Assembly: GCA_963702435.1 (NCBI GenBank)
Contig: CAVPCR010000005.1
Coordinates: forward strand, 145,721 to 209,720
DNA from: Candidatus Eiseniibacteriota bacterium
GTDB taxonomy: Bacteria; Eisenbacteria; RBG-16-71-46; CAVPCR01
Direction of reading: 5' to 3'
Length of the DNA: 64,000 nt
In this document: in pieces, positions 4,819-35,475 of the stretch
How the letters are laid out: every line of letters starts with the position of its first letter
How positions within the stretch are numbered: position 1 is the first letter of the stretch
Translations under genes and position numbers: made by a program
Notes under the pieces: model-generated
Database searches by the model: none
Seen by the model: the letters and a program-made list of their open reading frames with translations, nothing else
What the model was told of the DNA's origin: nothing

Positions 4819-5532
4819 CTACCTGAAAAGCGTCTTCAGGGCGCCCCAGGTCCGATCCTCGACCGCCGTCGCGCAGTTCGTGTCGCTCGTGTCGTAGAGA
4901 TCGTCCCCGTCGTTGTCGAGTCCCTGCGCAGCCCCGGCGAAGTTCTCACTCCCGTTTCCGTTGCACGACTGGGTCGGCATCGCGGGGTGCCCCGTGCCCG
5001 GGCTCGCATAGTACGGCGGCAGGACGTTCTCGCCGACCGGAGTGTAGTTGGCCGGATTGGCGTCCAGGTGGCAGTTGCTGCAGACCGTCGCGCCCGCGTT
5101 CTGGTGATGCTGGCGCAGCCCCGCTCCGTAACCGGAGCGCCCGGCGCCGACCTCGGGATTCCCGGCAACATTATCCTCGGAACGGCCGTGACAGCCCATG
5201 CAACCGATGGCCTCGAGCCCCGTCCCACCGTTCGACTCATCGAGGATCACAGGAAACGTGTCGGCGCCGTGGCACGCGTCGCAATCGCCGCCCAGCATGG
5301 TGGTGCGGTGTACGTTGTGCAGGTTACCCCAGTTCTGGCCGTCCACTGGCGAGACATACGCGGTCGCCCGGAAGTCACCGTGGCACGAACCGCAGTTCGA
5401 GGAGTCCCCGCCATAGGTCGTGTAGGCGGTGCCGGAACGACTCGATGCGAGAAGCGCGATGAGCGCCAGGAAGCAAGCAGCGATGATGCCGCTCGATATC
5501 CAGCGTCCCCGGGCAGTGATCACCTTTTCCAT
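4819..5532 (-). CDS. secreted tetrahaem c-type cytochrome, copy 1
   Basis: Four CxxCH motifs (CGSCH, CDACH, CMGCH, CSNCH). N-terminal signal peptide. GGGAGGTG RBS before ATG 5532. Confidence 0.75.
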   Translation of the reverse strand: MEKVITARGRWISSGIIAACFLALIALLASSRSGTAYTTYGGDSSNCGSCHGDFRATAYVSPVDGQNWGNLHNVHRTTMLGGDCDACHGADTFPVILDESNGGTGLEAIGCMGCHGRSEDNVAGNPEVGAGRSGYGAGLRQHHQNAGATVCSNCHLDANPANYTPVGENVLPPYYASPGTGHPAMPTQSCNGNGSENFAGAAQGLDNDGDDLYDTSDTNCATAVEDRTWGALKTLFR

Positions 5533-5606
5533 TTGACGCCACCTCCCTGTAGCCATGGAAACAAGGCAGGACCGGACCGAGTAGGCCCTTGTCAGCCGGG
5601 GGCAGA

Positions 5607-6083
5607 CTAGCAGGCCGGATGACCGAAGGCAACGGCGGGCCGGCGGGCGCTCGGACGCCGTGCCGAGTTCGCTTCAATCGAGAAGGACGAGCTTCCGCGC
5701 CGCGGCGTAGACGGGCGCGCGGGGCGAGGCGCGGGGCTGGGTGCTGAGCGGGGCGCGTACCGATAGCGCGCGAGCGACAAGCGCCCCGCCGGATCGAACT
5801 CGACGCCTTCCTTCTCGAGCAGGAACCGCTGGGCGAGACCGCCGCCGGGTTCGGAGCGCTCGAGGCTCAGGCGCCCCTCCGCATTCAGGATGCGGTGCCA
5901 TGGCACGGTCGACCCCGCCGGCAACGCATGGAGCGCGTAGCCAACGAGCCGGGCCTGACCAGGGAAGCCGGCGAGCGCGGCGATGTCGCCGTACGTCGCT
6001 ACCCGCCCGCGCGGCACCCGGCGCACCGCCGCGTGGATACGCCGGTGGGTATCACTCAGCGGCCGGTCGCCCGCGCTCGCCAC
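5607..6083 (-). CDS. atl: alkyltransferase-like protein (PWHR), copy 2
   Basis: More than 90% identical to copy 1 over the MGMT-like domain. The C-terminal tail is divergent. Confidence 0.7.
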   Translation of the reverse strand: MASAGDRPLSDTHRRIHAAVRRVPRGRVATYGDIAALAGFPGQARLVGYALHALPAGSTVPWHRILNAEGRLSLERSEPGGGLAQRFLLEKEGVEFDPAGRLSLARYRYAPRSAPSPAPRPARPSTPRRGSSSFSIEANSARRPSARRPAVAFGHPAC

Positions 6084-6097
6084 CGCCTACGCGCCGT

Positions 6098-6820
6098 CTA
6101 CCTGAAGAGCGTCTTCAGGGCGCCCCAGGTCCGATCCTCGACCGGCGTCGCGCAGTCCGCATCGAACGTATCGCGGAGATTGTCGCCGTCGTTGTTGAGT
6201 CCCTGCGTGGCCCCGGCGAAGTTCTCGCTCCCGTTCCCGTTGCACGATTGGGTCGGCATTGCGGGGTGCCCAGTGCCCGGGCTCGCGTAGTACGGCGGCA
6301 GGACGTTCTCGCCGACCGGAGTGTAGTTGGCCGGATTGGCGTCCAGGTGGCAGTCTGCGCAGACCGTCGCGCCCGCGACCTGGTGATGCTGGCGCAGCCC
6401 CGCTCCGTAACCGGAGCGCCCGGCGCCGACCTCGGGATTTCCGGCAACATTATCCTCGGAACGGCCGTGACAGCCGACGCAGCCGATCGTGAGCAGACCG
6501 GTACCTCCAGCGGACTGGCTCAGCAGCACGGGAAAGGTATCGGCGCCGTGGCAGGCATCGCAGTCACCGTTCAGCATGTTGGTGCGGTGTACGTTGTGCA
6601 GGTTACCCCAGTTCTGGCCGTCCACTGGCGAGACATACGCGGACGCCCGGAAGTCGCCATGGCACGCGCCGCAGTTCGTGGCGTCGCCTCCGTTCTGCGA
6701 GTACTGGGTGTACGCGTTGCCGGACCGACTCGAGGCGAGAAGCGCGATCGCGGCGCACAAGCAAGCGATGAGAATTCGGCGAGACATGAAGCGTCCCCGA
6801 GCAGTGATCAGCTTGTCCAT
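6098..6820 (-). CDS. secreted tetrahaem c-type cytochrome, copy 2
   Basis: CGACH, CDACH, CVGCH, CADCH. SRRILIA-type signal peptide. GGGAGGTA RBS. Close paralog of 4819-5532. Confidence 0.75.
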   Translation of the reverse strand: MDKLITARGRFMSRRILIACLCAAIALLASSRSGNAYTQYSQNGGDATNCGACHGDFRASAYVSPVDGQNWGNLHNVHRTNMLNGDCDACHGADTFPVLLSQSAGGTGLLTIGCVGCHGRSEDNVAGNPEVGAGRSGYGAGLRQHHQVAGATVCADCHLDANPANYTPVGENVLPPYYASPGTGHPAMPTQSCNGNGSENFAGATQGLNNDGDNLRDTFDADCATPVEDRTWGALKTLFR

Positions 6821-6960
6821 CAGACGCTACCTCCCTGTAGCCATGGAACGAACACGCGACCGTGGCCAGACCATTCCCAGCCGGGGGCAGGGTAGCAGGC
6901 GGTTACCGCCGACGGCAACCGGGGCCCGGGCGGACGCGGCGGTCCCGCGCGGAACCTGCC

Positions 6961-9900
6961 TCACTCCAGAACGACGAGCTTCCGCGCGGCGACGTAGCCC
7001 GGCGCGCGGAGCTCGTAGAGGTACACCCCGCGCCCGACCGCTCGACCGGCATCGTTCCGGCCGTCCCACACGACCGCGCGCCCGCCGGCAATCGGCTCCT
7101 GCTCCTCGTCCACGAGCGTCCGCACGAGGCGCCCGCTCACGTCGCAGATGCGGAGGGTGACCCGTCCGCGCGTCGCGATCGAGTAGCGGATCGCGGTCCC
7201 CCGCCGCGACACCGGATTGGGCGCCACCGCGGCGAGCGCGTTCACGAGGCGCGGCGATGCCTCGGGCCCGACCCCGATCGGCCCCGCGTTCACCGGCTGC
7301 CCGGCCCACTGGAAGAGATCGATCAGGAGCTCCGCGTTCGCGCCGTTCACGACGAAGTTGTCGAACAGGCACTGCTCGACGCAGTCGAGCGGCAGGAGCT
7401 CGGCGAAGGCGAAGCTCATCGTCACCGACTTCTCGCACGAGTGATTCGGGTTCGTCTTCCGCACGACCGCCTGCCAGGCGGGGCGCGCGACATCGTCCGC
7501 GCAGTTCACGGGGTCGTGGCCGTCCTCGAGCGACTCGACGAAGTGGGCAACCGGCTCGCCCGAGTTGATCGCGCCGAGGACGTTCAAGTCGACGTCATCG
7601 GGGCAACCCGATCCGAACGCCTCGCCCGCGAAGTCGGGTGCAAGCGCGGTCCCGGCGAGCCGCGCGCAGCGGCGGAGGTCGTTCGCAGCGAGTTGCTGAG
7701 CGTAGTCGCGCGCAAGCACATCCACACCGCGGTTGGCGAGGAAGGAGGGCCCATTGGTGGTGTTCTGGTCGATGTCGGCGGCCCAGCCCGTGCCCTCGAC
7801 GAGAAGGAGCCGCGGGTTCCCCTCGCTGCAACCCGCGAGCCACGTCTCGAGCTTCTGCTGGTCCATGGATGGCTGGCCGCCGAAGAGGGAGAGCGTGCGG
7901 CGGTCGCTCAGCGTGCGATGGTCGCTGAGACCCGCCGTGTACCAGATGCAGTCGTACCCGGCCAGCATGAGGTCGGTGGCCCCGTTGTGCGGCGGTCGCG
8001 GCTGCTGGGTCGGCCGATCCTCCCGCCGGCCGATCCCGTCGTAGCATTCCGAGTAATTCGTCGCCACGACATCGTAGACGTCGAAGCCGAGGCCGAGACT
8101 CGAGAGCGTCGCGACGAGGCGCTCGCGTTCCACCGTCGCCCGCCCCGGCACGCTCTGTGTGGCGTAGTCGCTGACGACGAGCATGCTGTGCGCATATGCC
8201 CCGCTGCAGTCCGGTGCGAGCGACGGCAAGACGTTCGACTGGAGCCAGAGTCCCTTGCTGCTTGGCTCCGTTGTGATCGGCTGCCGTCCGCGCCCGAACG
8301 GGAATGTCCCGAGGACCTGACTCGATACCGCATCCCGCGCCTCGAAGAAGTAGTAGACAGTCGTCCCCGGAGTGAAGAGGCCGTCGGGCAGTATGTCGTC
8401 GCAGGGCTCGTTCCCCGGCGGGGCGCCGGTCCAGTGGGTCCCGTTCCCGGCGTCCGCATCGTGGAAGCAGGTCATGTACCCGCCCGGCAAGCCCCCACCG
8501 TACCAGCGCGCCGTGTCCATCCGCGCCTCGTGCCAGAGGAGAGCATCGGGAAAGCTCCCGGGCGCCGACGGGGGGAAGGCGGCGAAGAACGGGTGCATGA
8601 GATTCGGCTGGCAGGCCCCGCGCTCCACGGCGAAGCGGAGGAAGACCGCTGCGTTCGGGGCTTGAACCTCGACTCCGGCCGTGTCGGGACGCACCCAGCG
8701 GGGGGGATTCTCGGGCCCGCCGAACACCGGGGTGTACGCCCCGTCCATCCGGGCCGTGGCGGAGAGCGGGAATCCCGTGTTCGAGGTCGGGAAGCTGTCC
8801 GCGTAGCGCTGGTAGGTCTGCGCCCGCAGCTCTGTGCTCGAGTCGTAGACGCCGAAGCGCATGTTGTCGATGAAGGGACCGCTGGCATCGCTCGGGTTGC
8901 ACGACCCGCCGATGCATTGCGAGTACATGCCCACCGCGAGGATCACGGAGTCCGCCGTCGCCGGCAGGTAAGAAGACATGTCATGGAGGAGATCCTGCTG
9001 GCAGCGCGCCCCGGCCCCCAGCGCGAAGGACTGGCAGCTTGTCGCGGAGACGCTCGACCAGTTGAAGATCGCGCCCGCTCCGGGCGAGCCGGGCGGCGGA
9101 GCGTAAGGGCAGTGATTGGCGTCGACCGGCCAGTAGTGGAAGCAGACGACGAACATGGCATCGAAGAGCCCGCTGCCGCCGTCGGCATACACATCGCCGA
9201 GGAAGAGCCGGCCTACATCGCCGTCGAGGTCGGGATGCGCACCACCACCGATTGCGAAGGGCGGAGAGACGGCGGCGGTTTTCGCCACGTGCGCCGCGCA
9301 TTCGTCCTGATCGGCGAAGAGGAGAACGTTACCCTCGATCGCACAGGCCTCAGGGCAGGGGACGACCGGCGGACAGGCGATGGCGGAGAGCGGCGCGATG
9401 CGCCCCGCGGGCCGGAGTGGATCGCCGGTCAGGACGACGTCCTGCCCCTCGCAGCGCCGGGGCTCCCAGCCGCTCATGCCCGTCTCGAAGTCGGCCCGGT
9501 CGATCGGCATGCCGTTCGCCCGGACCGCGATCTCATCCACCTGCCAGGCAAAGAGAAAGGCCCGGCCCGCGGACTCGTCGGAGACGAGATCATCGGTGGC
9601 CAGCCGGAGCCGGACCCAGAGATCCCCTTCGCCGCCAGGCCAGGGGCCGAGGGTCGCCGAGCCCGGTCCCCCAAGCGGCCCCGGCTCGGGCGCGACGAGC
9701 GTCCCGCCGGTCCAGATCCCGTTCCCGTTGGCTACCGTCCCGACCTGCTCCCACCGCACGCCGTCCGCCGAGATCTCGACCCAGCACGTATCGTGGCTCT
9801 GCTCGACCGCGTAGCGATGGAAGAACGTGAGATCGAGCAGCGCGTTGGGTGCGGGCGGCATGAACTCCCCGGGGCCCGGCGCGTTCCGGAAGCGGAACTG

Positions 9901-10506
9901 CTTCGCGACCGCCTGCGACCAGCCGTCGCCGTATCCCGCGGTTCCCCCCCAGCCGCAGTGCTCCGGGTTCAGGTGGAGGTTCGTCCCGATCCACACCGAC
10001 CAGCCGCCGGCGAGCGGGTCGGGGCCGTCGTTCGCCCCGTTGTTGGCGTGCGTCGTCGCCCGGTGCGCGAAGGCGCCTCCATCGAAGTCGAAGTCGTACG
10101 TGCCGTCGGTTCGCCAGTGTCCCGTACCGAGCGCCGAAGGACCGTCGCCATGTGTCGTCAGGTCTGCGAACGTCCACCCGTCGCGGTACTGGTTCCCGAC
10201 CGGATCCCCATCCAGGAAGAACTCTGGCGCCTCGCCCGAGTCGGCCTCCCAGTTCCACACGCCGCCGCGGACGACAGCCCCGTTGCCGAAACCGCTCCCG
10301 CCGAACCACACCGTGTCGGCATGGGCGTCGAGCCACCCCGGGTCGTGTGCTGCGAGCGCCTCGCGGTCCGCTGCCCCGTCATAGGGTTGTGGAACGAGCG
10401 GCACGGCGCCCGCCGGCGCAGCGGCCAGAAGAAAGGAGAGAGCGGCAAGAGGCACGGCACGGCAGTTCCATGTGGCCATGGCAGCCTCCACTGTGACCTG
10501 GCCCAT
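6961..10506 (-). CDS. giant secreted protein of unknown function with T9SS C-terminal sorting domain, paralog 1
   Basis: Signal peptide (MATWNCRAVPLAALSFLLAAAPAGA). About 1180 aa with many conserved Cys. The C-terminal about 80 aa (RYSIATRGRVTLRICDVSGRLVRTLVDE...VVWDGRNDAGRAVGRGVYLYEL...KLVVLE) fits the T9SS CTD. No HExxH or other recognisable catalytic motif. Confidence 0.65.
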   Translation of the reverse strand: MGQVTVEAAMATWNCRAVPLAALSFLLAAAPAGAVPLVPQPYDGAADREALAAHDPGWLDAHADTVWFGGSGFGNGAVVRGGVWNWEADSGEAPEFFLDGDPVGNQYRDGWTFADLTTHGDGPSALGTGHWRTDGTYDFDFDGGAFAHRATTHANNGANDGPDPLAGGWSVWIGTNLHLNPEHCGWGGTAGYGDGWSQAVAKQFRFRNAPGPGEFMPPAPNALLDLTFFHRYAVEQSHDTCWVEISADGVRWEQVGTVANGNGIWTGGTLVAPEPGPLGGPGSATLGPWPGGEGDLWVRLRLATDDLVSDESAGRAFLFAWQVDEIAVRANGMPIDRADFETGMSGWEPRRCEGQDVVLTGDPLRPAGRIAPLSAIACPPVVPCPEACAIEGNVLLFADQDECAAHVAKTAAVSPPFAIGGGAHPDLDGDVGRLFLGDVYADGGSGLFDAMFVVCFHYWPVDANHCPYAPPPGSPGAGAIFNWSSVSATSCQSFALGAGARCQQDLLHDMSSYLPATADSVILAVGMYSQCIGGSCNPSDASGPFIDNMRFGVYDSSTELRAQTYQRYADSFPTSNTGFPLSATARMDGAYTPVFGGPENPPRWVRPDTAGVEVQAPNAAVFLRFAVERGACQPNLMHPFFAAFPPSAPGSFPDALLWHEARMDTARWYGGGLPGGYMTCFHDADAGNGTHWTGAPPGNEPCDDILPDGLFTPGTTVYYFFEARDAVSSQVLGTFPFGRGRQPITTEPSSKGLWLQSNVLPSLAPDCSGAYAHSMLVVSDYATQSVPGRATVERERLVATLSSLGLGFDVYDVVATNYSECYDGIGRREDRPTQQPRPPHNGATDLMLAGYDCIWYTAGLSDHRTLSDRRTLSLFGGQPSMDQQKLETWLAGCSEGNPRLLLVEGTGWAADIDQNTTNGPSFLANRGVDVLARDYAQQLAANDLRRCARLAGTALAPDFAGEAFGSGCPDDVDLNVLGAINSGEPVAHFVESLEDGHDPVNCADDVARPAWQAVVRKTNPNHSCEKSVTMSFAFAELLPLDCVEQCLFDNFVVNGANAELLIDLFQWAGQPVNAGPIGVGPEASPRLVNALAAVAPNPVSRRGTAIRYSIATRGRVTLRICDVSGRLVRTLVDEEQEPIAGGRAVVWDGRNDAGRAVGRGVYLYELRAPGYVAARKLVVLE

Positions 10507-10513
10507 GTCGTCC

Positions 10514-13500
10514 TCACTCGAGCACGACGAGCTTCCGCGCCGCCGCGTAGCCCGGCGCGCGGAGTTCGTAGAGATACACCCCGCGTCCGACCGCGCGCCC
10601 GGCGTCGTTCCGCCCGTCCCACACCACCGCGCGCCCGCCGGCGATCGCCTCCTGCTCCTCGTCCACCAGTGTCCGCACCACGCGCCCACTCACGTCGCAG
10701 ATGCGGAGCGTGACCCGCCCGCGCGTCGCGATCGAGTAGCGGATCTCGGTCCCCCGCCGCGCCGCCGGGTTCGGCGCCGCCGGGGCGAGCGCGTTCACGA
10801 ACCGCGGGGTTCCCGCCGGCGCAACCCCCACCGGCGCCGCGTTCACCGGCTGTCCCGCCCACTGGAAGAGATCGATCACCAGCTCCGCGTTCGCGCCGCT
10901 CACGACGTAGTCGTCGAACAGGCACTGCTCGATGCAGTTCAGGGGCAGGAGCTCGGCGTAGGCGAAGCTCATCGTCACCGACTTCTCGCACGAGTGATTC
11001 GGGTTCGTCCGCCGCACGACCGCCTGCCAGGCGGGGCGTGGCACGTCGTCCGCGCAGTTCACGGGGTCGTCGCCGTCCTCGAGCGACTCGACGAAGTAGG
11101 CCACCGCCTCGCCGCCGCCCGTCGACGCGAGTACGCTGATCGGGATGTCGTCGGGACAGCCCGAGCCGAACGCCTCGCCCTCGAAGTCGGGCACGAGCGC
11201 GGTCCCGGCGAGCCGCGCGCAGCGCCGGAGGTCGTTCGCAGCGAGTTGCTGAGCGTAGTCGCGCGCGAGCACGCCGATGCCGCGATTGCCGAGGAACTGC
11301 GGGCCGTTCACCGTGTTGGACTGGATGTCCGCGGCCCACCCCGTGCCCTCGAGGAGGAGGAGACGCGGGCTCCCCTCGCTGCACCCCGCAAGCCACGTCT
11401 CGAGCTTCTGCTGGTCCATGGACGCCTGGCCGCCGAAGCTCGGGAGCGTGTTCCGGTCGCTCAGTGTCCCGAACTGGCTCAAGCCCGACGCGTACCAGAT
11501 GCAGTCGTACCCGGCGAGCATGAGATCGGTGGCCCCGTTGTACGGCGGCCGCGGCTGCTGTGATGGCCGGTCCTCGCGGCGTCCGATCGTGTCGTAGCAC
11601 TGGTTGTAGTTGGTGCTGACCGCATCGTAGACGTCAAACTCGAGTCCGAGCGAGGCGAGCGTCGCGGTGAGGCGGGAGCGCTGCGTCGTCGCTCGGCCCG
11701 GCACGCCGCCGGTCGCGTAGTCGTTGACGATCAGCATGCTGTTGGCGTAGGTGCCGTCGCAGGCCGGCGCCAGCTCGGGCAGGTTGTTGATCTGGAGCCA
11801 GTAGTCCTTGTGGTTGGCCGTCGTCCGCACGATGCCGCGGTTCCTCGCGAGGGGGAACGTGGCGACGACGCTGCCGGCGCCGGCCCCCGCGGCGACCCGC
11901 GCCTCGAAGAAGTAGTAGACGTTCGTCCCCGCGGTGAAGAGGCCGTCCGGCAGGATGTCGTCGCACGGCTCGACCGCCGGCGGCGCGCCCGTCCAGAACG
12001 TCCCGTTCCGCGGATCGTCCTCGTGGAAGCAGGTCATCCAGTACCCGTTCACGGTCTGCGAGTTGCTCATCGCTTGCGCCGTGTCCATCCGCGCCGCGTG
12101 CCAGTTGAGGTCGTTCGGAAAGGTGCCGGGAGCGGTGGGCGGGAAGGCCACGAAGAACGGATGGGTCAGGTTCGGCTGGCATGCGCCGCGCTCGACCGCC
12201 CACTTGAGGTACACCGCGGTGTTCGGAGCGGCAATGGCAGTGGCCGCCGAGTCGGCACGCACCCAGCGCATCGGGATCTCGATGCCGAGCGACATGGAGA
12301 GGCTGAAGGCGGCGTCGGTGCGGGTGGTCGCGGCGAGCGGGAAGCCCGTGTTCGAGGTCGGGAAGTTGTCGGCAAAGCGATCGAGGGTGTTCGACCGCAG
12401 GGCGGGGCCGCTCGGGTCGTACACGCCGAAGCGCACGTTGTCGATGAAGGGGCCGGTGGCGTCGCTCGTGAGGCACGATGCGCCGTCACACTCGGCGACC
12501 ATGCCCAGGGTGAGGATCACCGAGTCGGCGCTGGCCGGGATGAACGCCGACCAGTCGAAGGTCATGTTCCACATGCAGTGGATACCCGCCCCGAGTCCGA
12601 TGATGTGACAAGCGCCGTCACCGCCCTGCTGCGACCAGTTGAAGACCGAGCCCCCGCCGGGCGATCCGGCCGGCGGCGCGTACGGGCAGTGATTCTCGTC
12701 GAAGGGCCAGTAGAGGAAGCAGAAGTAGAGAGCCGTATCGAAGAGCCCGCTCCCGCCGTCCGCGTACGCATCGGCCTCGAGGATCCGCCCCGCGTCGCCA
12801 TCGAGGTCGGGATGGGCGCTGCCGCCGATCGCGAAGGCCGGGGAGAAAGCCGCTGTCGTCGCCTCGTGGGCCGCGCACTCGTCCTGGTCCACGAAGAGGA
12901 GAATCCGATCCTCGATGGCGCAGTTCTCGGGGCAAGCGACCAGTGGCGGGCCAGGCGGGCAGGCGATGGCGGAGAGCGGCGCGATGCGCCCCGCGGGCCG
13001 CTGCGGATCCCCGGTCAGGACGACATCCTTCCCCTCGCAGCGCCGCGGCTCCCAGCCGTCCATGCCCGCTTCGAAGGTGGCCAGATCGATCGGCGCCCCG
13101 TTCATGCGGAGCGCCAGGTCGTCCACCTGCCAGGCGTAGAGATACGTGCCGCCCGCGCTCTCATCGGAGAGCAGGGCATCGGTGGCGAGCCGGAGGCGGA
13201 CCCAGAGATCCCCCTCGCCGCCGGGCCAGCGACCGAGGCTCGCCGAGGCCGGTCCGCCGAACGGCCCCGGTTCGGGCGCGGCGCGCGTCCCGCCGGTCCA
13301 GATCCCGTTCCCGTTGGCCGCCGTCCCGACCTGCTCCCACCACACGCCGTCCGCCGAGATCTCGACCCAGCACGTGTCGAAGTTCTGCTCGACCGCGTAG
13401 CGATGGAAGAAGGCGAGATCGAGCGTGGCATCGGAAGGCGGCGGCGGGAACTCCCCGGGCCCGGGCGCGTTCCGGAAGCGGAACTGCTTCGCGATCGCCT

Positions 13501-14065
13501 GCGACCAGTAGTCACCATACCCCGCCGTCCCCGGCCACGCGCAATGCTCCGGATTCAAGTGGAGGTTCGTCCCGATCCACACCGACCAGCCGCCGGCGAG
13601 CGGATCCGGGCCGTCGTCCACGCCGTTGTTGGCGTGGGTCGTCGCCCGGTGCGCGAAGGCGCCGCCATCGAAGTCGAAATCGTACGTGCCGTCGGTCCGC
13701 CAGTGCCCCGGGCCGAGGGCGGAGGGCCCATCGCCGGCCGTCGTCAGGTCATCGAAGGTCCAGCCGTCGCGGTACTGGTTCCCGACCGGATCCCCATCGA
13801 GGAAGTACTCCGGGGTCTCGCCGGAATCGGCCTCCCAGTTCCAGAGGCCGCCGCGGGCGACCGTGCCGTTCCCGAGCCCGCTCCCGCCGAACCACACCGT
13901 GTCGGCGTGGGCGTCGAGCCAGCCTGGGTCGCGCGCAAGCACCGCCTCGCGATCGATGCCGGCGTCATACGGTTCGAGCACGGGGCGCGCCGCGCCGGCC
14001 GGCGCGGTGGAGACGAGAAGCGAAAGGACGGCCAGAAGGCCGGCGCAGCGGATTCCCGCGGTCAT
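10514..14065 (-). CDS. giant secreted protein with T9SS C-terminal sorting domain, paralog 2
   Basis: About 70% identical to paralog 1 along its length. Signal peptide MTAGIRCAGLLAVLSLLVSTAPAGAA. GGTGGAGGG RBS before ATG 14065. Only an 8-nt gap to paralog 1. Confidence 0.65.
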   Translation of the reverse strand: MTAGIRCAGLLAVLSLLVSTAPAGAARPVLEPYDAGIDREAVLARDPGWLDAHADTVWFGGSGLGNGTVARGGLWNWEADSGETPEYFLDGDPVGNQYRDGWTFDDLTTAGDGPSALGPGHWRTDGTYDFDFDGGAFAHRATTHANNGVDDGPDPLAGGWSVWIGTNLHLNPEHCAWPGTAGYGDYWSQAIAKQFRFRNAPGPGEFPPPPSDATLDLAFFHRYAVEQNFDTCWVEISADGVWWEQVGTAANGNGIWTGGTRAAPEPGPFGGPASASLGRWPGGEGDLWVRLRLATDALLSDESAGGTYLYAWQVDDLALRMNGAPIDLATFEAGMDGWEPRRCEGKDVVLTGDPQRPAGRIAPLSAIACPPGPPLVACPENCAIEDRILLFVDQDECAAHEATTAAFSPAFAIGGSAHPDLDGDAGRILEADAYADGGSGLFDTALYFCFLYWPFDENHCPYAPPAGSPGGGSVFNWSQQGGDGACHIIGLGAGIHCMWNMTFDWSAFIPASADSVILTLGMVAECDGASCLTSDATGPFIDNVRFGVYDPSGPALRSNTLDRFADNFPTSNTGFPLAATTRTDAAFSLSMSLGIEIPMRWVRADSAATAIAAPNTAVYLKWAVERGACQPNLTHPFFVAFPPTAPGTFPNDLNWHAARMDTAQAMSNSQTVNGYWMTCFHEDDPRNGTFWTGAPPAVEPCDDILPDGLFTAGTNVYYFFEARVAAGAGAGSVVATFPLARNRGIVRTTANHKDYWLQINNLPELAPACDGTYANSMLIVNDYATGGVPGRATTQRSRLTATLASLGLEFDVYDAVSTNYNQCYDTIGRREDRPSQQPRPPYNGATDLMLAGYDCIWYASGLSQFGTLSDRNTLPSFGGQASMDQQKLETWLAGCSEGSPRLLLLEGTGWAADIQSNTVNGPQFLGNRGIGVLARDYAQQLAANDLRRCARLAGTALVPDFEGEAFGSGCPDDIPISVLASTGGGEAVAYFVESLEDGDDPVNCADDVPRPAWQAVVRRTNPNHSCEKSVTMSFAYAELLPLNCIEQCLFDDYVVSGANAELVIDLFQWAGQPVNAAPVGVAPAGTPRFVNALAPAAPNPAARRGTEIRYSIATRGRVTLRICDVSGRVVRTLVDEEQEAIAGGRAVVWDGRNDAGRAVGRGVYLYELRAPGYAAARKLVVLE

Positions 14066-14115
14066 GGCAACCCTCCACCTGTGGCCGGGACGGTCTCTTC
14101 CGTCGGCATAAATAC

Positions 14116-14132
14116 TGCAAGCATTGTGCCGA
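14116..14132 (-). promoter_or_regulatory. sigma-54 (-24/-12) promoter upstream of the giant paralogs
   Basis: The minus-strand sense reads cGGCACaatgcTTGCAg: a GG-N10-GC geometry matching TGGCAC-N5-TTGCW, about 50 nt upstream of ATG 14065. Confidence 0.55.
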
Positions 14133-14272
14133 GTCGGGGCTGTTTCTTCCAACGCTCGCATCGGCGATGACTTGCGTTTCCTGGTGACCGACGCAGCTTC
14201 CTGCGCCGGGCACGCTGTGTCATGGACATGACACTCCCCGGGGACCGGTATCTACAATGGCCATGTGAGATC

Positions 14273-17035
14273 TCATCGCACGATACCGTGGCGCCTCATC
14301 CTGGCGATGAGCGTCGTCCGCTTGAGGCCGAGCGCCGCCGCCGCCGCGCTCTGGTTCCAGTCGGCGTCCATCAGCGCCTGGATGATGCGGCGGCGCTCGA
14401 GCCGGCTCAGCTCCTCGTCGAGGGCGAGATGCTCTGCGGCATCCGTTCGCCTCCCGGCGCTGGCGGCGAGGTCGGCGGACAGGAGATCGAGACCCACCTC
14501 GCGATGGCCTCCGGCGAGGGCGACCACCCGCCGCACCTCGTTCTCGAGCTCGCGCACGTTCCCCGGCCACGGGTAGCTGAGACATGCCTCCCGCGCCGCG
14601 GGCGAGAAGCGGAGCTGGGGCTTGCCGGCCGCCGCGGCGTAGGCATGGAGGAAGTGATCGAGGAGAAGACCGATGTCCTCGATCCGCTCCCGGAGCGGCT
14701 TGAGCTCGATCACGACCGTTGCCAGCCGGTAGTAGAGATCCCGCCGGAAGCGGCCGGCGCGCACATCCTCCTTCAGGTCGCGGTTGGTCGCCGAGATGAC
14801 GCGGATGTCCGCCCGACTCATGGCGGACTCGCCGATCCGCCGGAAGTCGCCGGTCTCGAGGAAACGAAGGAAGCTCACCTGCACTGGGAGCGGCATCTCC
14901 CCTACTTCGTCGAGGAAGAACGTGCCGCCGTCGGCCGCCTTGAGGAGCCCCTTGCGCTCGCGATCGGCGCCCGTGAACGCCCCGCGCGTGTGGCCGAAGA
15001 GCTGGCTCTCGAGAAGCTCCTGCCCGAGACCGGTGGGGATGAGCGGCACGAAGGTGCCGCTTCGCCGCGGACCGGCGGCGTGGATGGCGCGCGCGACGCG
15101 CTCCTTCCCCACGCCGGTCTCGCCGAGGATGAGCACCGGCACATCGGAGCTGCCGAGGCGCTCGACCTGCTCGAGCACTTCCAGCATCGCCGGGCTCTGT
15201 GCGATGAAGGTCCCGCTCAGGAGAGTGGTCCGCTCCGCGTCCCGCCCCGGGCTCGATCCCGGCCGCCGGCCACCGGAGACGGACGCGGCGGCGACTCGGA
15301 GCCCGGCCGCACGTCCGGGCTCGTCGGCGCTCGCGCGCTCGGCCGCGCGGGCGAGCGCGTTCGCCTCCTCGTTCATGCGCTGCCGATCCGATGACAGCCC
15401 TTCCGCGGCGAGGACCGGGCGCGCGCGATCGAGCATGGCGCGGGCTCGATCGAGCATGCCGGCCCTGATCTGCAGGCGCGCCCGCACGAGCTGGCAGCGG
15501 GCCACCCCGAGGGCGAGCCCGAGCTCGGCGAAGATGCGCTCGGCCTCGGCCAGCACCACGAGCACGTCCTCGATGGGCATCGCCGCCGACCGCACCTCGA
15601 GCTCGGCCAGGCGGAGGAGCGAGTGGGGAAGCTCCGATTGCCGGCCGGCGGCCCGGAGAAGGTCGACCGAACGATGGATCTCGGTGGCGGCGCGGTCGAG
15701 ATCTTCACGCTCGATCGCAAGATCCGCGAGCACGCGATGCGTGAGCCCCTCCTCGACGCGATCGCCAGCGGTGCGGGCGGCGCTGAGCGCCAGCGCGGCG
15801 TCCGCGGCGGCGGGATCGAGCCGGGCCAGGGCGAGGTGGGCCTCCGCCCGCCGGCGAAAGGCGCCGGCCGCATTCCGCGGGTTGTCGCGATCGAGCCAGC
15901 CCACGAGCGCGTCGAAATGGCGAAGAGCTGCTTCGTGCTCCCCGCGCGCCATCGCCAGCTCCCCGGCGACCGCCTCCAGCCACCCCCGGATCCGATCGTT
16001 CACCTCGCCCGCGGCCCGTTCCGCCTCGGCGCAGATCCCGGCGGCCTCCCGGAAGCGGCGCCGGAATACGCAGAGCCTCGCGAGCGAGATCAGCGGGTCC
16101 ACCGTGGCGCGCCGGCTGCCGCTCGCCTCGTGCACGCGGATGCTCTCCCGGAGATTGGCTTCCGCCTCGTCCCATTTCCCCATCGCCATGTTGACGATGC
16201 CCAGATTCAGGAGCACCGCCCCCGCCCGGGCTCCGCTCTCGCCGGCGCCGATGGCTGCGGCGCGCCGCAGGTAGTTGTGCGCCGACTCGACATGCCCGGA
16301 GAGAAGCGACACGATCCCGAGGTTCGAGAGGAGTTCGAGCATCCGCGGGCGGCGGTCCCGCGCGTGCTGGAACGAGTAGGCGTCGAAGAGCAGATCGAGA
16401 GCTTCATCGGGACGCCCGGCCACCGAGGAAGCGATGCCCAGGCACTGCCGGGCGTCGGCCGCCGCGCCGGGCCAGTTCTCGGCGAGCGCCAGGTCGAGCG
16501 CCCGGCGCGCCGGCTCGAGGGCGGCCGGCTCCCGATCGTCCTGGATCGCGAGCCATGCGGTCGCGAGCAGGCGGCAGACCGCAGCTGGAAGCGGGGGTGT
16601 GGGACCGAGGATCTCATCGGCCGCGCGCACGTGGTCCCGCGCCTCGTCGGAGGAGTTCGCGCGCGCCAGCAGGGAAGCCAGCCGGTAGCGAACGATCGCC
16701 ACCTCGACCGGAGGAGCTGCGCCCGCGTGGGCGGTGAGCCACTCCCGGTATGCCTCGATGGCCGCGTTCCCCCGGCCCTGATCGCGAAGGTCGTCGGCGA
16801 GCCGGCGGGATGCAGCGGCCAGGAGGAGGTGGTCTCCCTCCCTCCTGGCGCGGGCGGCGAGCAGGACGAGCCGGTCGCGGTCGGGAGGCGCCTCGACGAG
16901 ATGCAGATCGAGGTCGGGATCGGCCGCACGGGCCCGGGGTGACACCGGAGGGGGCGCTGGGGCCATAGCGTCAATCTTTCGACGTGGCGTCATGGACTTG
17001 ACACCTACTCGATTCTCCCAGGACAGCGGGTCCAT
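14273..17035 (-). CDS. sigma-54-dependent transcriptional activator (bEBP) with N-terminal TPR repeats, AAA+ domain and C-terminal Fis-type HTH
   Basis: GETGVGKE Walker A, GAFTGA sigma-54 contact motif, and RRDLYYRL. C-terminal AAAALGLKRTTLIARMRRHGI helix-turn-helix. GGGAGGG RBS before ATG 17035. Alternative starts at 16993 and 16966. Confidence 0.85.
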   Translation of the reverse strand: MDPLSWENRVGVKSMTPRRKIDAMAPAPPPVSPRARAADPDLDLHLVEAPPDRDRLVLLAARARREGDHLLLAAASRRLADDLRDQGRGNAAIEAYREWLTAHAGAAPPVEVAIVRYRLASLLARANSSDEARDHVRAADEILGPTPPLPAAVCRLLATAWLAIQDDREPAALEPARRALDLALAENWPGAAADARQCLGIASSVAGRPDEALDLLFDAYSFQHARDRRPRMLELLSNLGIVSLLSGHVESAHNYLRRAAAIGAGESGARAGAVLLNLGIVNMAMGKWDEAEANLRESIRVHEASGSRRATVDPLISLARLCVFRRRFREAAGICAEAERAAGEVNDRIRGWLEAVAGELAMARGEHEAALRHFDALVGWLDRDNPRNAAGAFRRRAEAHLALARLDPAAADAALALSAARTAGDRVEEGLTHRVLADLAIEREDLDRAATEIHRSVDLLRAAGRQSELPHSLLRLAELEVRSAAMPIEDVLVVLAEAERIFAELGLALGVARCQLVRARLQIRAGMLDRARAMLDRARPVLAAEGLSSDRQRMNEEANALARAAERASADEPGRAAGLRVAAASVSGGRRPGSSPGRDAERTTLLSGTFIAQSPAMLEVLEQVERLGSSDVPVLILGETGVGKERVARAIHAAGPRRSGTFVPLIPTGLGQELLESQLFGHTRGAFTGADRERKGLLKAADGGTFFLDEVGEMPLPVQVSFLRFLETGDFRRIGESAMSRADIRVISATNRDLKEDVRAGRFRRDLYYRLATVVIELKPLRERIEDIGLLLDHFLHAYAAAAGKPQLRFSPAAREACLSYPWPGNVRELENEVRRVVALAGGHREVGLDLLSADLAASAGRRTDAAEHLALDEELSRLERRRIIQALMDADWNQSAAAAALGLKRTTLIARMRRHGIVR

Positions 17036-17128
17036 GACAAGGCCCTCCCTGCGCTGGGCAGGGAGGGCCTTGCACTGACCTGAGGTTCGGGCCGCGGTCG
17101 GGCCGCTGTCGGCCTCCTGCGGCTCGGA

Positions 17129-19210
17129 CTACCGGATCCGCGTGACCTTGCCGGTGGCTTCGAACCCCGTGCTGGACAGGCGATACAGGTAGATGCCCGC
17201 GGGCAGATCGTTCCCGCGCGCATCCCGGCCGTCCCAGCTCACCATCCCCGGGCCGGCGCCGATACGACCGTCGATGAGCGTCCGCACCAGTCGCCCGTCG
17301 GTCCCGTAGACCCGGAGCGTCGCCGGTCCATCCTGCGGGACGACGAAGCTGATCGTCGTCGCGCTCATGAATGGATTCGGCCGCACCGAGACCTGCGTCA
17401 GGCCCGGAGCCGTTCCCGGATCCTCGATGCTCGTCGGGCCGTCGGGAGGCGTGGTCGTGAACCGCAGCGCGCGCCCGGCCGCGAGCCCATGCGCCGCCGC
17501 GTTCAGATGACCACTCGCCAGGTACTGGATGCCGACCGTCTCGGTCTGGTTCTCGATGCCGACCGTGCACCCGGAGGCATCGCTCACCACCGCGTACTGG
17601 ATGTCGATCTGCCCGTCTCCGGTCTCGGTCGGATGCATCGCCGGATTGTAGAGAATGAACTGGAGGGTCTCCGGCACGCCGAGCCCGGCGTCGTGGTAGT
17701 GCTCCACTCCGCTGAACTCGACGATGTAGCGACCGCCCGCGGCATCGTCCCACGCGTAGACCTTCCCGCTGCCGGCGGCTGCCGGGTTCAGGTCGGTCCA
17801 GAAACCGGCGATCATCTTCGGCGGTCCCTCGGGGCCGGGGATCGAGCCGTTCGAGACCGCGTACTCGGTGGTCGCCCCGAGGGCCAGGAACCCGTTCGAG
17901 GAGATCGAGATCCGATTGTCCACGTTGCCGTACAGCTTGAAGCTGAACGACATGGTCCGCTGTACGGTCTGATCATCACCCAGCGAGACCAGGGTTCCCG
18001 GTCCGCCCCGCGTGGGATCGATCTCCACCCAGTTGTAGGTCGGCCGCGGAACATTGCCCGGCCCGTCCACGTCCTCGTACGCGTAGTAGCCGTAGCTGTC
18101 CGCTCCGATCGGGTCGGTGGGCGAGCCGACGCCAAGAGTCAACGTCGTCTGCTTCGTGTAGCCCCCAGCCGCCGCCAGGTCGAAACTGAAGGGGATCTCG
18201 TATCCGTACGGCACTGCGAGGACCACGCTCAGCGCGAAGGGATCGGCGCTGTTGTCGCCGGTCGCCAGGTACGCGATGTCGGGCCAGGTCCCCGCACCGT
18301 CGGTGACCGTCGCATTGGCATCGCTCGTCGACAGCGCCCCGGCGATCGTGGTTGCACCGACCGGATTCAGGTTCATGAGCGTGAGCGCGATCTCGGCGTC
18401 CTCGCCCGGATCGAGCCGGCCGTTCCCGTTGCCGCCCGCGGTGTCGTCGATCACGACACTCGAAACGACGAGCTCGGGCTGATCGAGGTGGAAGAAGATC
18501 TTCGCCGCCTGGTGCACTTCCTTGGTGGCGTCGTCCTGCACGAAGACCACGCACTCGAGGTTCCTCTCGACCCAGGCCGGGCCGAGCGCGAAGGTCTGCG
18601 TCCGCGTGACCGGCACGCTGGGGGCGAACGTGATGACCTCACCGGTTGGCGCGGGGAGGAAGTCACGCATGCCGTGGTTCAGCGTCTGCGGGAGCCGGTA
18701 GGTCGAACCGGCCGGCGGGGCCACACCGCTCTCGGTGATCGCGAAGCGCAAAGCCCCCGTCACGGGGGCGCCGCTCGTGTTCGTGATCTCGGCCGTGATG
18801 GTGCCGGCGACGCGATCCCCGCTCAGGTTGATGCGGAGCGGGCTCGGCATCGCCGCTCGATCGAGGACCATCTGCTCCCAGGCCCCGCCGGAAGTGCCGT
18901 CGACAATGCCGTCGAAGTAGGTGTGTGGCGTGTAGCTGACGCTGTAATAGGTGATGCGAGCCCGGTTCTCGTCGATGTTGGCCTGATAGAACGGATCCCC
19001 GATGCCGGGCCACCAGGCGTGAACGGCGATGGTGGCGACCATCTCGGGATGATTCGCAACGATCTGGTCCAGCACACGGCTGGCTGCTGGGCAGCCTGGT
19101 CAGGATGTGTTCGTGAACTCCTCGATGAGAACCATCCTGGGCTCGGCCGTGGCCAGGCTCGAAAGCCCGATCACCGCCACGAGCGCTCCGGCGAGTGCAA
19201 GCGTCCTCAT
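17129..19210 (-). CDS. T9SS-sorted thioredoxin-like protein with an in-frame TGA (candidate Sec codon at 19100-19102) in a UxxC active-site motif
   Basis: ATG 19210 with a GGAGGT RBS. Signal peptide MRTLALAGALVAVIGLSSLATA. Then VLIEEFTNTS-[TGA]-PGCP aligns with the EEFTxTWCGxCP thioredoxin-like motif. The frame continues into the 17129..19075 ORF. The C-terminus (PNPF..TTISF...LRVYGTDGRLVRTL..WDGRD..G..LPAGIYLYRL) is a classic T9SS CTD. Confidence 0.6.
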
Positions 19211-19381: not shown

Positions 19382-22300
19382 TCAGGGGACGGCTATCACC
19401 GTGGCCGGGAGCTCGCGCACGATGATCTCCCCGGCAGCGCTCGCCTCGACGCGGGCGCCGTTGACCGTGGCGGAGCGAACGGCCGCGAGCGGGGTGCGAA
19501 CGGCAATCCCGCCCGGTGGGATGCGGGTGCCGGCCTCGATCTTGACCTCGACGCTCGCGTCTCCCGCGCCCGCGTGCCGCATGGTGAACGAGAGCGGACC
19601 GTGGTGCGTGCTGAGGTTCCGCACCGTGAGGCCCGGTCCGGCGAGCCACTCGCTCGGTACGCCCGCGCCGAGGACGAGCGACTCGTCCGCCTCGCGCTCG
19701 TACGCGAGCATGTCGAGGATGGAGCGGATGAAGTCCGATCCGACCCAGGTGTGCGGGAGGTCGCCGACGAAGTGCGGGACGCGGTCCTCGCGGCGCACCA
19801 CCTCCGGCCACTGCCGCCAGCCGGTCGGCTTCTGCTGCGTCAGGAACCAGCGCGTGAGCTCCTGGGCGCGATCCCGCCAGCCGAGGCGCACGAAGGCGCC
19901 GATGTTCCGCATCTCGTAGGGCGTGAACGCATCCCACGGCGCGCCGTCGCGCCGCGCGGTGAAGAACTCCCAGTAGCGCTCGAACGTGCGCTCGAGCGCG
20001 GCCGGATCGAGGATCGCGGCGGCGTTGGTCGGGGCCAGGGCGATCGTGGTCGAGGTGGCGTCGAAGTCGCCGAGATCGGCGCATCCCGGGATGTAGTCGA
20101 TCGCGTGCACGCGCCGGGCCGCCTCGACCGAGGCGGCGAGGTCATGGGCGAACTCGTCGCGGATCGCGGCGAGGCGGGCCGCTTCGGCCGGGTGGCCCAG
20201 TTCGGCCGCGAGGAACGTTGCGTCCTTGAAGCCGAGGAAGGCGAAGAAGTCGTCCCAGTAGGAGTGCATCGGCTTCGCCGAGTAGCCCTCGTGGCTGATC
20301 GAGGGCGGGAGGAGCCCGTAGAAATGGAGTTTGTCAGGGGTCTCGTACTCCGGCGTCCGGCGCTCGTGGCGGAGCGAGTCGAGATAGGCGGCCGCGGCGA
20401 CGACGCGCGGCCACATCGCCGCGGCGAGCGTGCGATCGCGCGTGTGCCGGTAGTACTCGGCGACGAGGTAGATGAACTCGCCCGATGAATCGTGCTCCGG
20501 CACCGGATCGGCGCCCCGCCAGTCGACGACGCAGGGGATCTTCCCGTTCGGATACTGGTGGGGCGCGAACCACTCGATGAACTCGCGCACCGCATCCGCG
20601 TGCCCGAGGCGCAGCAGCGCCGTCGAGGTGAGCGAGCCGTCGCGGATCCAGGAGCGCGCGTAGGCCCGCGTGCCCGGCTGGATGGCGGGACCGGCGCGGT
20701 TGACGAGGATGTAACGGAGCTGAGCGCGCAGGGACTCGGCGATCCACTCCGCAGGCGCCGGAAGTGAGCGGAGGTCGATCGTGGCCCGTTGCATGGACGA
20801 GTCCCAGGCGCGCCAGTACGCCCCCACCTGCTCCGTCACCCAGTCGAACGCTGCGCTCTGGCCCTCGACCATGGGCGGCGGCGGCGAGTCCGCGTGGAGC
20901 GGAATGACGACATGCACCTGGTCCTTGCCGATGTAGTACGGCTTTCCCGCCGTCGCGACATTCATGGGGAATGCAAGCACAGCGGATGCGGCACCGAAGG
21001 CGTCCTCGACGGCGCTCTTGTCCGGCAGCCTGCCTTGCGCCAGGTAGTCGGCGACGGCGTCGCCCTGGTCGAACGTCGCCGCCCCGAAATCCGCTGGTGG
21101 AGTGAGGCAGAAGAAGGCCGGTCGCCCATTGGCGCGCAGGATGCGTCCGTCCACGGCCAGATCGCGGATCGGCGCCGTCCCGCCGAGCTTGTTGAGGAAC
21201 TGAGCCGGGGGATTCACCTGGAACGGGCGCACGGCGAGGCAAAGGGTGGCCTGCACCGGCTCTGCCGACGAGTTGGAGACCCCGTAACTGACGACAATCG
21301 ATGACGCGCCGGGATCGCCGGTCGCGAATGCGTTCACCGAGAGGTGGAGCGGCGGGACCTCGCGCGAGACGGAAGGCATCACCTCCAACCCCTGACTCGT
21401 CGTCCCCTCGGCCCAGGTGAACAGCGTGTCCCCGACCATGAGGAACGGCTCGATCGAGAAATGCTCCTCCCCCGCCTCGATCGCTCCGTCCTCGCTGAAC
21501 AGGACCTCGCGGCGGTCGTTGTCGGCGCCGACCACCGTCCAGTAGCTCTGCTCGCCCGACATCCCGCGCGGGTAGAGCCCGCGCCGCGCATCGGCCGCGA
21601 TCGCCTGGAAGAACGCCTCGCGTGTGGCCGACCAGGCGAGCGGCTGGACGGCGACCGCGGCGAGCGCCGCGCGCTCCGCCGCTTCCGGCGCGCCGGTCAG
21701 GCGCACCCGCACGTGGCGCGATTCGCTCTCCGGGAGATACAGGTAGTCGCGGCCGCCGTTCCCGCCCGCGACCGTGCGCGCGGCCGTCCACGGGCCGCCG
21801 CCCTCCTCCGCCGTCTCGATCACGTAGTCGCTCGCGCCGCCCTCGGGCGCCCAGTCGAGGACGAGCCCGCCATACTCGCGCGGCACGCCGAGATCGAGCG
21901 CGAGCCACGGGGCGCGATCGCCGGCGGCCGGACGCCACGCGGTCGTCGAATCGCCATCGAGCGCGCGCGCCGCCGCGTGCCCGCCTTGCGCCGAGGAAGC
22001 GCTCGCCACCGGCGGCGGCGGCGCCTGGTCGGCCGGCGGGAGCGGCGTGAGGGTCGAGATCGTCGATCCACACGCTTCCCTGGCCGCCGCTCCCCGCGGT
22101 GACGACGATCTCGAGCGCGGCGACATGCCGGATCTCGCCCCCGCCCTGCGGTCCCCAGGCGAAGGCGATCTGGCGCTTCTTGATCGCGAACTTCTGCCAC
22201 TCTGCAGGGAAGACGTAGTCGCGGCGCACGAACCACCAGACGTTCTCGCCCGTCGCGTCGAGGAGCTTGAACTCGACGTGATTGGACGGCGCCGCGCCCC

Positions 22301-22484
22301 GCACGCGGAAGGAGAATGCGTAGTTCTCAGGAAGGTGGAGCGCCATCTTCCGCCGCGCCACCGCGTAGCCGCCGCCGCTCTTGAAGTGGAAGTCGAGCCG
22401 CATGCGCGCCGCCGCGGCGCCCGGCTCCGAGCGCAATCGCGAGATCGACGCCGTCGGCCGGGAAGGGCGCCCAGGCGGCGACAT
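19382..22484 (-). pseudogene. CBM-like + F5/8 (discoidin) domain + (alpha/alpha)6-barrel glycoside hydrolase (GH15/GH63-like), with a frameshift near 22060
   Basis: The N-terminal domain sits in the 20334..22484 frame (...GSVWIDDL). It continues in the 19382..22852 frame (LTPLPP.. discoidin motif ALDGDSTTAW ... SWIRDGSLTSTALLRLG (GH15-type) ...). Downstream of the shift the reading frame is intact for about 900 aa. Confidence 0.6.
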
Positions 22485-22581
22485 CCGTCGAAGTCGTCGA
22501 TCACGGCTCGGGGCCGTCGGCGGCGGTTGCGCCGCCCGCTCAGGAGCAGAGGCGACGGGCGATCCCGCCGAGAATGCCGTC

Positions 22582-24242: not shown

Positions 24243-24249
24243 CGCCGAG

Positions 24250-25625: not shown

Positions 25626-25749
25626 CCGAGCGTGGCGCGCGGCTCCGCTCGATCGTCCCGCCTTGCCCGCCTTCGGCGCGTCGAGCCAGCCGCCGCTGAA
25701 ACCGGCCGCCTGAGACCGCGGACCACATGCGGGTTCTTCCGCATGGTCC

Positions 25750-29862: not shown

Positions 29863-35475
<5,613 letters not shown>

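Follow-up and report, generated by a model that had tools for sequence, protein, structure and literature searches.

Enhancer-binding proteins of the NtrC/NifA class combine an AAA+ module carrying the GAFTGA motif with a C-terminal Fis-type helix-turn-helix (HTH) domain, and are accompanied by a dyad ~100 nt ahead of a GG-N10-GC promoter element and by a dyad over their own promoter; their sensors are receiver, GAF, PAS or V4R domains. In Bacteroidota, type A cargo of the type IX secretion system (T9SS), such as gingipains, PorU and PorZ, carries a signal peptide and an Ig-like C-terminal domain (CTD) of ~80 aa. The T9SS regulators of that phylum are PorX/PorY and the extracytoplasmic function (ECF) sigma factor SigP; to our knowledge, none of the known ones is a sigma-54 activator. 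A sorting signal and sigma-54 do meet in the PEP-CTERM/PrsK-PrsR-PrsT system, where the genes with the sorting signal are each preceded by an activator motif and a -24/-12 promoter, and where the regulatory set includes a tetratricopeptide repeat (TPR) protein (Haft et al. 2006, PMC1569441). Here we analyse a locus within 64,000 nt of a Candidatus Eiseniibacteriota genome (contig CAVPCR010000005.1 of assembly GCA_963702435.1, positions 145,721 to 209,720 of the forward strand; below, the window). As an earlier note on this DNA had described, the window contains the gene of a TPR-containing sigma-54 activator and, downstream of it, two tandem genes for paralogous proteins of ~1180 aa; all three are on the minus strand. 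Taken as a whole, this arrangement is probably a self-contained sigma-54 regulatory unit in the chromosome of Candidatus Eisenbacteria (Eiseniibacteriota). Its features, in order of transcription, are as follows.

14273..17035, minus strand: activator gene (enhancer-binding protein) with a TPR/MalT-like sensor, an AAA+ module with GAFTGA and an HTH_8 domain

14217..14234: putative enhancer (upstream activating sequence), a perfect 8+2+8 palindrome GTGTCATG-TC-CATGACAC (TGTCA-N6-TGACA), 102 nt upstream of the -24 GG

14117..14130, minus strand: putative sigma-54 -24/-12 promoter GGCACaatgcTTGC(A), 10/12 matches to TGGCACG-N4-TTGCW

10514..14065, minus strand: paralog A, 1183 aa, the same as database protein P0001 in length and sequence

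6961..10506, minus strand: paralog B, 1181 aa, the same as database protein P0002; 1172 aa if read from the ATG at 10479

The evidence for sigma-54 control begins in the 207-nt gap that follows the activator gene. There the -24/-12 element GGCACaatgcTTGCA precedes the ATG of paralog A (14065) by 52 nt, in the orientation of that gene; scored as cGGCACaatgcTTGCA, it gives the 10/12 listed above with a GG-GC spacing of 10 nt, and the predicted transcript start would fall near 14105. The earlier note had placed a canonical sequence of this type about 50 nt upstream of the second paralog. Both the element and its distance hold, and the gene concerned is the first to be transcribed, paralog A, which had been numbered 2 for its higher coordinates. 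We found no sigma-70-like promoter in this gap. For the string GGCAC-N5-TTGC 0.33 occurrences would be expected in the window and two are found, one of them being GGCACAATGCTTGCA at 14130..14117 on the minus strand. Since equal or better matches to the 12-position consensus occur at two other places in the window, namely 7842 on the minus strand (TGGCTCGCGGGTTGCA, 11/12, within the coding sequence of paralog B and probably there by chance) and 60206, the window motif alone is suggestive only. These matches, the shortness of the motif and the lack of such a promoter at most family members elsewhere are what can be said for the alternative that the match arose by chance, the paralogs using another type of promoter and the activator controlling genes elsewhere.

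Orthologous loci argue against that alternative. A search of 5.8 billion proteins with the N-terminal 600 aa of the activator returned four orthologs only, at ~55% identity (P0188-P0191), and the DNA was read for three of them (metagenome loci L012, L013 and L014). Among the matches listed from JGI metagenomes were two unrelated TPR proteins and no further orthologous activator locus. In all three loci GGCAC-N5-TTGC recurs in the gap after the activator gene and in the same orientation (GGCACgtcgcTTGC, GGCACagagtTTGC and GGCACagggcTTGC), and the gap sequence around it has diverged between the loci. Over both strands of 385 kb, comprising the window and non-redundant related loci, the string occurs six times, and four of the six are in orthologous activator gaps; about 0.006 occurrences would be expected by chance in the four gaps (background ~2 per 384 kb). 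The gap motifs of the four loci were registered by pattern; MAFFT alignment misplaced those of the window. Indeed, with a conserved dyad at 102-115 nt as well, and no promoter of the sigma-70 type to take its place, a fortuitous match is very improbable. The -24/-12 element, the dyad and the gene order are all kept in the three orthologous loci, and sigma-54 control of the paralogs by the adjacent activator, which the earlier note had proposed, is very likely.

The dyad of the window lies ~40 nt past the stop codon of the activator gene, and GTGTCATGTCCATGACAC is a candidate target for the HTH domain of the activator. It fits the TGT-N10-ACA form, which we take to be that of NifA sites. Measured to the GG of the -24 element, a GTC-N8-GAC dyad is found 102 nt upstream in the window, 115 nt in both L012 and L013, and 113 nt in L014.

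The activator itself (920 aa) has the parts that such a role requires of an NtrC/NifA-class protein. Its AAA+ module matches Sigma54_activat (PF00158) at residues 611-776 (E 1.8e-60; 203.9 bits against a cut-off of 20.2), Pfam also finds AAA_lid_14, and HTH_8 follows at residues 877-915 (E 3.3e-9). Walker A (GETGVGK at 638), GAFTGA (at 685) and Walker B (DEVGE at 709) are intact; the GAFTGA and Walker motifs are kept in the four orthologs, two of the four reading GAFTSA. The N-terminal part matches TPR_12 and TPR_MalT at ~78-342, the latter (PF17874) passing with 51.3 bits where 45 are required, and helical repeats go on to ~560. The true start of the protein may be the ATG at 16993 or that at 16966. 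The sensor is thus a MalT-type TPR array of ~500 aa, unlike the receiver, GAF, PAS or V4R domains of the NtrC/NifA class, and the target genes encode secreted CTD proteins, which also sets the system apart from that class. The likeness to MalT/STAND sensors is confined to PF17874: the ATPase here is of the sigma-54 AAA+ type and not a NACHT/STAND NTPase, and the output domain is HTH_8 and not a LuxR-type HTH. The activator scores below every NCBIfam equivalog cut-off, at best ~290 bits. Membership in PrsR was considered and rejected, since TIGR02915 gives 278 bits against 502.6, covers the AAA+/HTH part only, and a receiver domain is lacking; PEP-CTERM/PrsR is an analogy, not a case of membership.

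Several observations weigh against the unit as just described. In all four orthologs a segment of ~150 aa separates the TPR and AAA+ parts (alignment A5, columns ~610-785), where the window activator has a short linker; its TPR-AAA+ architecture is therefore derived. A GAF identity of the segment was rejected, as it has no Pfam match. The missing segment may represent loss of a gating domain: in many enhancer-binding proteins a domain beside the AAA+ module gates activity, and the window activator may for this reason be deregulated; it could be constitutive, differently controlled or impaired. No rpoN gene is present in the 64-kb window. L013 and L014 are close relatives, so that the three comparison loci amount to about two further lineages, and the downstream dyads of L012-L014 are poorer matches to the consensus (8/10). 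Frameshifts elsewhere in the window mean that its sequence is not error-free. Finally, the large-family genes at seven other loci (L001-L003 and L006-L009) have neither an adjacent activator nor a -24/-12 element scoring at least 9/12 in a plausible position. Sigma-54 control as a trait of the whole large-protein family was rejected on these loci; it belongs to the cassette, not to the protein family.

The nature of the input is a separate matter. In MalT, the TPR region binds a small inducer. Because a MalT-type TPR model is passed and the ~150-aa segment is lost, the TPR array need not imply the protein-protein input that had been suggested for it.

We propose the following circuit. An oligomer of the activator would bind the 18-bp dyad TGTCA-N6-TGACA past its own stop codon and, from ~100 nt upstream (about -125), would spend ATP to open the complex of the sigma-54 holoenzyme at GGCAC-N5-TTGCA. 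A two-gene transcript for both paralogs would start ~40 nt before the first ATG. A second dyad, just past the -10 of the activator's sigma-70-like promoter, would provide autoregulation, probably repression. Both paralogs would be exported by Sec, and their CTD would most likely hand them to a type IX-like route of secretion and attachment. Domains, motifs, their conservation and their positions are observed; we infer from them the binding of the activator to the dyad, the sigma-54 dependence, the co-transcription of A and B, how the two proteins are secreted and what they do.

The features that bear on autoregulation and on the upstream boundary are these.

16987..17004, minus strand: second activator-type dyad GTGTCAAGTCCATGACGC, 16/18 identical to the enhancer dyad, just downstream of the activator -10

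17012..17040, minus strand: sigma-70-like promoter TTGTCA-17-GAGAAT of the activator gene, its -10 preceded by TG; a consensus match only

17039..17071, minus strand: terminator-like hairpin with a stem of ~15 bp, AAGGCCCUCCCUGC..GCAGGGAGGGCCUU, at the end of the upstream gene for an Omp28-like protein with a CTD

TTGTCA-17-GAGAAT is the only sigma-70-like match within 5500-17300. In L012-L014 a TTGACT or TTGACG promoter likewise precedes the activator gene, overlapped by two dyads that are 19 bp apart (start to start). Matches to TGTCA-N6-TGACA at 9/10 or better number 10 in 193 kb, and eight of the 10 are at these activator genes: seven over the activators' own promoters and one at the enhancer of the window. 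The dyads over the activators' own sigma-70-like promoters therefore suggest autoregulation, for which the dyad at 16987..17004 would be the candidate operator. One more match (9/10), at 56900-56915 inside the gene 56237-56983, is probably due to chance. The hairpin has a minimum free energy of -63.9 kcal/mol (z = -5.2), and none of 200 shuffles folds as well; as it ends the preceding gene, the unit appears transcriptionally insulated upstream. Between paralogs A and B we found no promoter or terminator motif, which argues for their co-transcription. After paralog B no structure was better than shuffles (z = 0.86), and the stretch from paralog B to the first of two cytochrome genes yielded no terminator. 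These two, directly downstream of paralog B at 6098-6820 and 4819-5556 (both minus strand), are paralogous multihaem cytochrome c genes with Cytochrom_c3_2 / MtrC-like matches, and an O6-methylguanine methyltransferase gene (5607-6083) lies between them.

The genes placed behind the promoter differ between the orthologous loci. In L013 and L014 the next gene belongs to the large-protein family, its product being 56-59% identical to the paralogs and equidistant from A and B. In L012 an FG-GAP protein and then a BNR protein are driven, both ending in FlgD_ig, and on the contig of the fourth ortholog (P0188) a beta-helix protein lies downstream, with no CTD match on record. L012 also has its promoter and a leader of ~100 nt duplicated ahead of both CTD cargo genes (12691-12860 and 14674-14805); the duplicated leader holds a hairpin with a 10-bp stem (GCGCTTGGCC…GGCCAAGCGC), and the second copy of the promoter reads TTGT for TTGC and is without a dyad. 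In L013 the last 33 codons of a CTD, ending in GVNFYELDSPGFVATRKLFLLE and a stop, are left at 3691-3789 between the sigma-54 promoter and the large-family gene, a relic from which we conclude that an earlier cargo gene was deleted or replaced. Elsewhere the large-family genes occur as a tandem pair (L001), as a single copy by a rotamase gene (L002) and as a single copy by an fn3 gene (L003). At L002 the rotamase (PpiC/SurA-like) gene and the single-copy large-family gene are divergent, and GGCACCCCTCTTGC (7035, minus strand) precedes the rotamase gene by ~47 nt; this sequence may have arisen by chance or may be a further sigma-54 promoter. A more far-reaching possibility, which we regard as rather doubtful, is that TPR activator, dyads and sigma-54 promoter together form a conserved 'expression socket' of Eisenbacteria into which CTD-tagged cargo is swapped, that the TPR array couples this cargo to a signal, and that the ~1,100-aa proteins form a new class that binds or degrades polymers outside the cell.

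The earlier note had called the two large proteins T9SS cargo. Searched against PDB sequences, family profiles match the CTDs of PorU (6za2, E 2e-5 and 7e-8) and PorZ (5m11, E 7.6e-4), as well as FlgD, and nothing outside the CTD. The curated models are less favourable: TIGR04183 gives 19.1-19.3 bits for the paralog CTDs and its cut-off of 23 is not reached, PF18962 (Por_Secre_tail) is not detected in the two window paralogs, and FlgD_ig matches them at 25-28 bits. In the 64-kb window there is no gene for T9SS machinery (SprA/Sov, PorK-N/GldK-N, PorU or PorV), and a literature search found no link of Eisenbacteria with T9SS. These facts would suit a FlgD-like Ig domain without any T9SS signal, on proteins that are exported by Sec and stay in the periplasm or take another route to the surface. 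Against this stand the profile matches to PorU and PorZ and the constant position at the extreme C-terminus with the motifs PNP, GxYxY and K-x4-end. Among 39 relatives Por_Secre_tail is found in 31 (mostly weak) and CHU_C in 24, one distant relative passes PF18962 at 27.4 bits, and NCBI names one distant relative 'T9SS type A sorting domain-containing protein'. In these genomes the same CTD is the last domain of many secreted proteins unrelated to one another, which is the pattern of a sorting tag. We therefore consider the FlgD-only explanation unlikely and give a T9SS-type secretion route for the paralogs a good probability. Because the CTDs score below the curated cut-off and the window holds no machinery gene, we call the paralogs T9SS-type CTD proteins, with membership unproven; the earlier claim is probable. 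Phylum and curated cut-off are where they depart from the Bacteroidota cargo, which they resemble in having a putative signal peptide (by inspection) and an Ig-like domain of ~80 aa at the end. The upstream neighbour (17129-19075, minus strand) encodes an Omp28-like protein whose own CTD, 39% identical to that of the paralogs, passes TIGR04183 at 24.0 bits.

Paralogs A and B are 75% identical, with 88-92% identity at residues 50-200, 54-70% at 400-800 and 74-90% after 1000. Paralog A is preceded by the ribosome-binding site GGTGGAGGG at 14079-14071; for paralog B the alternative ATG at 10479 has the better one, GGAGG. The tandem arrangement is as previously reported, and the gap from the stop of A to the ATG of B is 7 nt and not 8 (34 nt from the alternative start). 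By inspection both proteins have a hydrophobic N-terminus ending in APAGA and putative signal peptides, MTAGIRCAGLLAVLSLLVSTAPAGA before ARP in one and ...AVPLAALSFLLAAAPAGA before VPL in the other. Each has 28 Cys, 14 of them invariant across 27 family members, presumably forming disulfides; the many conserved Cys had been remarked on before. In paralog A the putative signal peptide is followed by an N-terminal conserved region with a MAM-like jelly roll (~55-370), two beta-sandwich regions (~385-740), an alpha/beta domain resembling class I glutamine amidotransferase (GATase1) and GIFT domains (~755-1075; 10841-11803) and the CTD (~1095-1183; 10514-10783). Paralog B has the same architecture, with its CTD at ~6961-7230.

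The family is sizeable. The 33 close homologs belong to Candidatus Eisenbacteria/Eiseniibacteriota where a taxon is given, the rest being metagenome proteins, and all are annotated as hypothetical. A profile of the large proteins found eight loci in a genome collection, seven from Eisenbacteria and one unclassified; the family has so far been seen in Eisenbacteria only. Among 1.84 billion representatives the profile found ~300 (>300) proteins at E < 1e-30, many of them full-length (1,000-1,130 aa) at ~25% identity. Pfam searches of 39 relatives gave FlgD_ig in 38 and InhA-like_MAM in four (weak), besides the CTD models mentioned above. In the two large proteins themselves the only Pfam domain is the CTD, and, as foreseen, hidden Markov model searches assign them to no well-known family.

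What these proteins do was approached through their predicted fold. The AlphaFold model of full-length paralog A consists of beta-sandwich modules, the alpha/beta domain and the CTD; a Foldseek search with it matched InhA2 over 166 aligned columns at probability 1.0, a match taken to be with the MAM-like domain of InhA2. Modelled separately, residues 741-1092 gave a pLDDT of 78.5 and a pTM of 0.83. The top Foldseek match of this part is IFT52-N (5fms; E 3e-6, target-normalised TM-score 0.60-0.62), followed by the GATase domains of ADC synthase and CTP synthase and by the GH164 beta-mannosidase 6t5o; the Foldseek probability is 1.0 for IFT52-N and the ADC synthase GATase domain and 0.9 for the CTP synthase glutaminase domain. 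The alpha/beta domain has the class I glutamine amidotransferase fold. Its nucleophile elbow, however, reads LLEGTGWA (G907, W910 and A911 invariant), or LSGDxxA in the wider family, and contains no Cys; the domain is therefore not an amidotransferase and would be a non-catalytic member of the fold. In fold it is like IFT52-N and the GldG 'GIFT' domain and like non-catalytic class I GATase-like domains. It differs from these in having no sequence-level match (ABC_transp_aux or GATase Pfam models) and no catalytic Cys, and in being embedded in an exported 1,180-aa protein of several sandwiches.

Two peptidase assignments were rejected. An M6 (InhA) metallopeptidase is contradicted by the lack of HExxH in all of the 27 family members and by the scarcity and weakness of InhA-like_MAM; the NCBIfam match 'M6-like inactivated' spans the CTD only. 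A PorU-like sortase or clan CD peptidase is contradicted by the limitation of the PorU match to the CTD, and the caspase/legumain matches to the alpha/beta domain are weak (E > 0.01, TM ~0.19), well below the GATase-like ones.

As the earlier note had held, then, there is no recognisable catalytic motif: Pfam, NCBIfam, PDB sequences and Foldseek gave no catalytic domain, and the best fold matches (IFT52-N, 6t5o and the 166 columns of InhA2) presumably fall on non-catalytic modules of those proteins. We give even chances to the proteins having a binding role at the surface or outside the cell, most likely towards a glycan or another polymer, rather than being a known type of enzyme. Three things count against this: its main basis is the absence of catalytic signatures, the full-length model is of moderate confidence (pLDDT 73.6, pTM 0.52), and whole-chain PDB matches of that model are not meaningful (TM < 0.2). 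The alternative is a new kind of enzyme, for example a hydrolase of polysaccharides or proteins whose site would be in the GATase-like domain or in the highly conserved N-terminal part. In its favour, conservation is very strong at charged and His residues beyond the structural cores (H121, H139, H221, E226, D230 and the loop IGRREDRxTQQPRPP), the MAM-like domain of M6 peptidases is weakly similar, tight on/off sigma-54 control is typical of substrate-induced catabolic functions, and BNR, GH15-like and glucoamylase-like proteins are among the neighbours. Set against the missing HExxH, the Cys-free elbow, the empty domain searches and the presumed non-catalytic nature of the matched modules, this makes a new enzyme possible and, in our judgement, somewhat improbable.

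The three genes sit in DNA of uniform composition. The G+C content is ~70% over the whole window, a value at which long shadow open reading frames (ORFs) are common, and we therefore used codon-position G+C for the choice of frame. In the minus-strand ORFs 6961..10689, 10514..14251 and 14273..17128 the G+C at third positions is 0.87-0.90 and that at first positions exceeds that at second positions; given these third-position values, we preferred the minus-strand frames over the large plus-strand shadow ORFs. The term 'island', used for this locus in the earlier note, is not borne out, since composition is uniform, mobility genes are lacking and other family members lie in unrelated chromosomal contexts; a horizontally acquired island was rejected for want of a compositional signal.

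Elsewhere in the window, several frameshifts affect a sugar-utilisation cluster (22771-27289, minus strand) and the 5' end of the ORF 19382-22852. Within the cluster a Glycoamylase domain (PF10091) is divided between two overlapping frames, the SBP_bac_1 gene is truncated and MalF/G-like permease fragments are present; a permease C-terminus is joined in frame to an F5/8-type-C / GH15-like ORF. The broken cluster consists either of pseudogenes or of long-read indel errors. The AT skew is unusual (+0.14 to +0.20) at 22-30 kb, the stretch of this cluster. A 1,943-aa ORF at 29644-35475 (plus strand) has matches to UvrA_inter, UvrA_DNA-bind and several to ABC_tran, and is about twice the normal size of UvrA.

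Of the described systems, PEP-CTERM/Prs offers the closest conceptual parallel: cargo with a sorting signal stands behind an activator site and a sigma-54 promoter, and a TPR protein is among the regulators. The two differ in the sorting signal, which in our unit is an Ig-like CTD of T9SS type and not PEP-CTERM, and in the regulators: a single cytoplasmic protein unites TPR and AAA+ here, the Prs set comprising a histidine kinase, a response regulator and a TPR lipoprotein. Our literature search found nothing specific linking Eisenbacteria or T9SS with sigma-54. The new elements are the fusion of a MalT-type TPR sensor to the AAA+ engine, T9SS-type cargo as the target, and the uncharacterised cargo family. 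The unit fits the view (PMC3162934) that sigma-54 controls the cell exterior.

Because the mechanism is textbook sigma-54 activation, the value of the finding lies in annotation and experimental leads and not in a new principle: the regulatory unit is tidy and fairly ordinary, tied to an uncharacterised protein family. It draws attention to a sizeable family of secreted proteins for which Pfam has no model. It also gives a concrete, testable circuit of sensor-activator, operator, enhancer, promoter and cargo in a phylum without cultured members and with scant functional literature. If correct, this circuit would add T9SS-type CTD cargo to what sigma-54 controls at the cell exterior, in parallel to PEP-CTERM/PrsR and in a manner different from PorXY and SigP.

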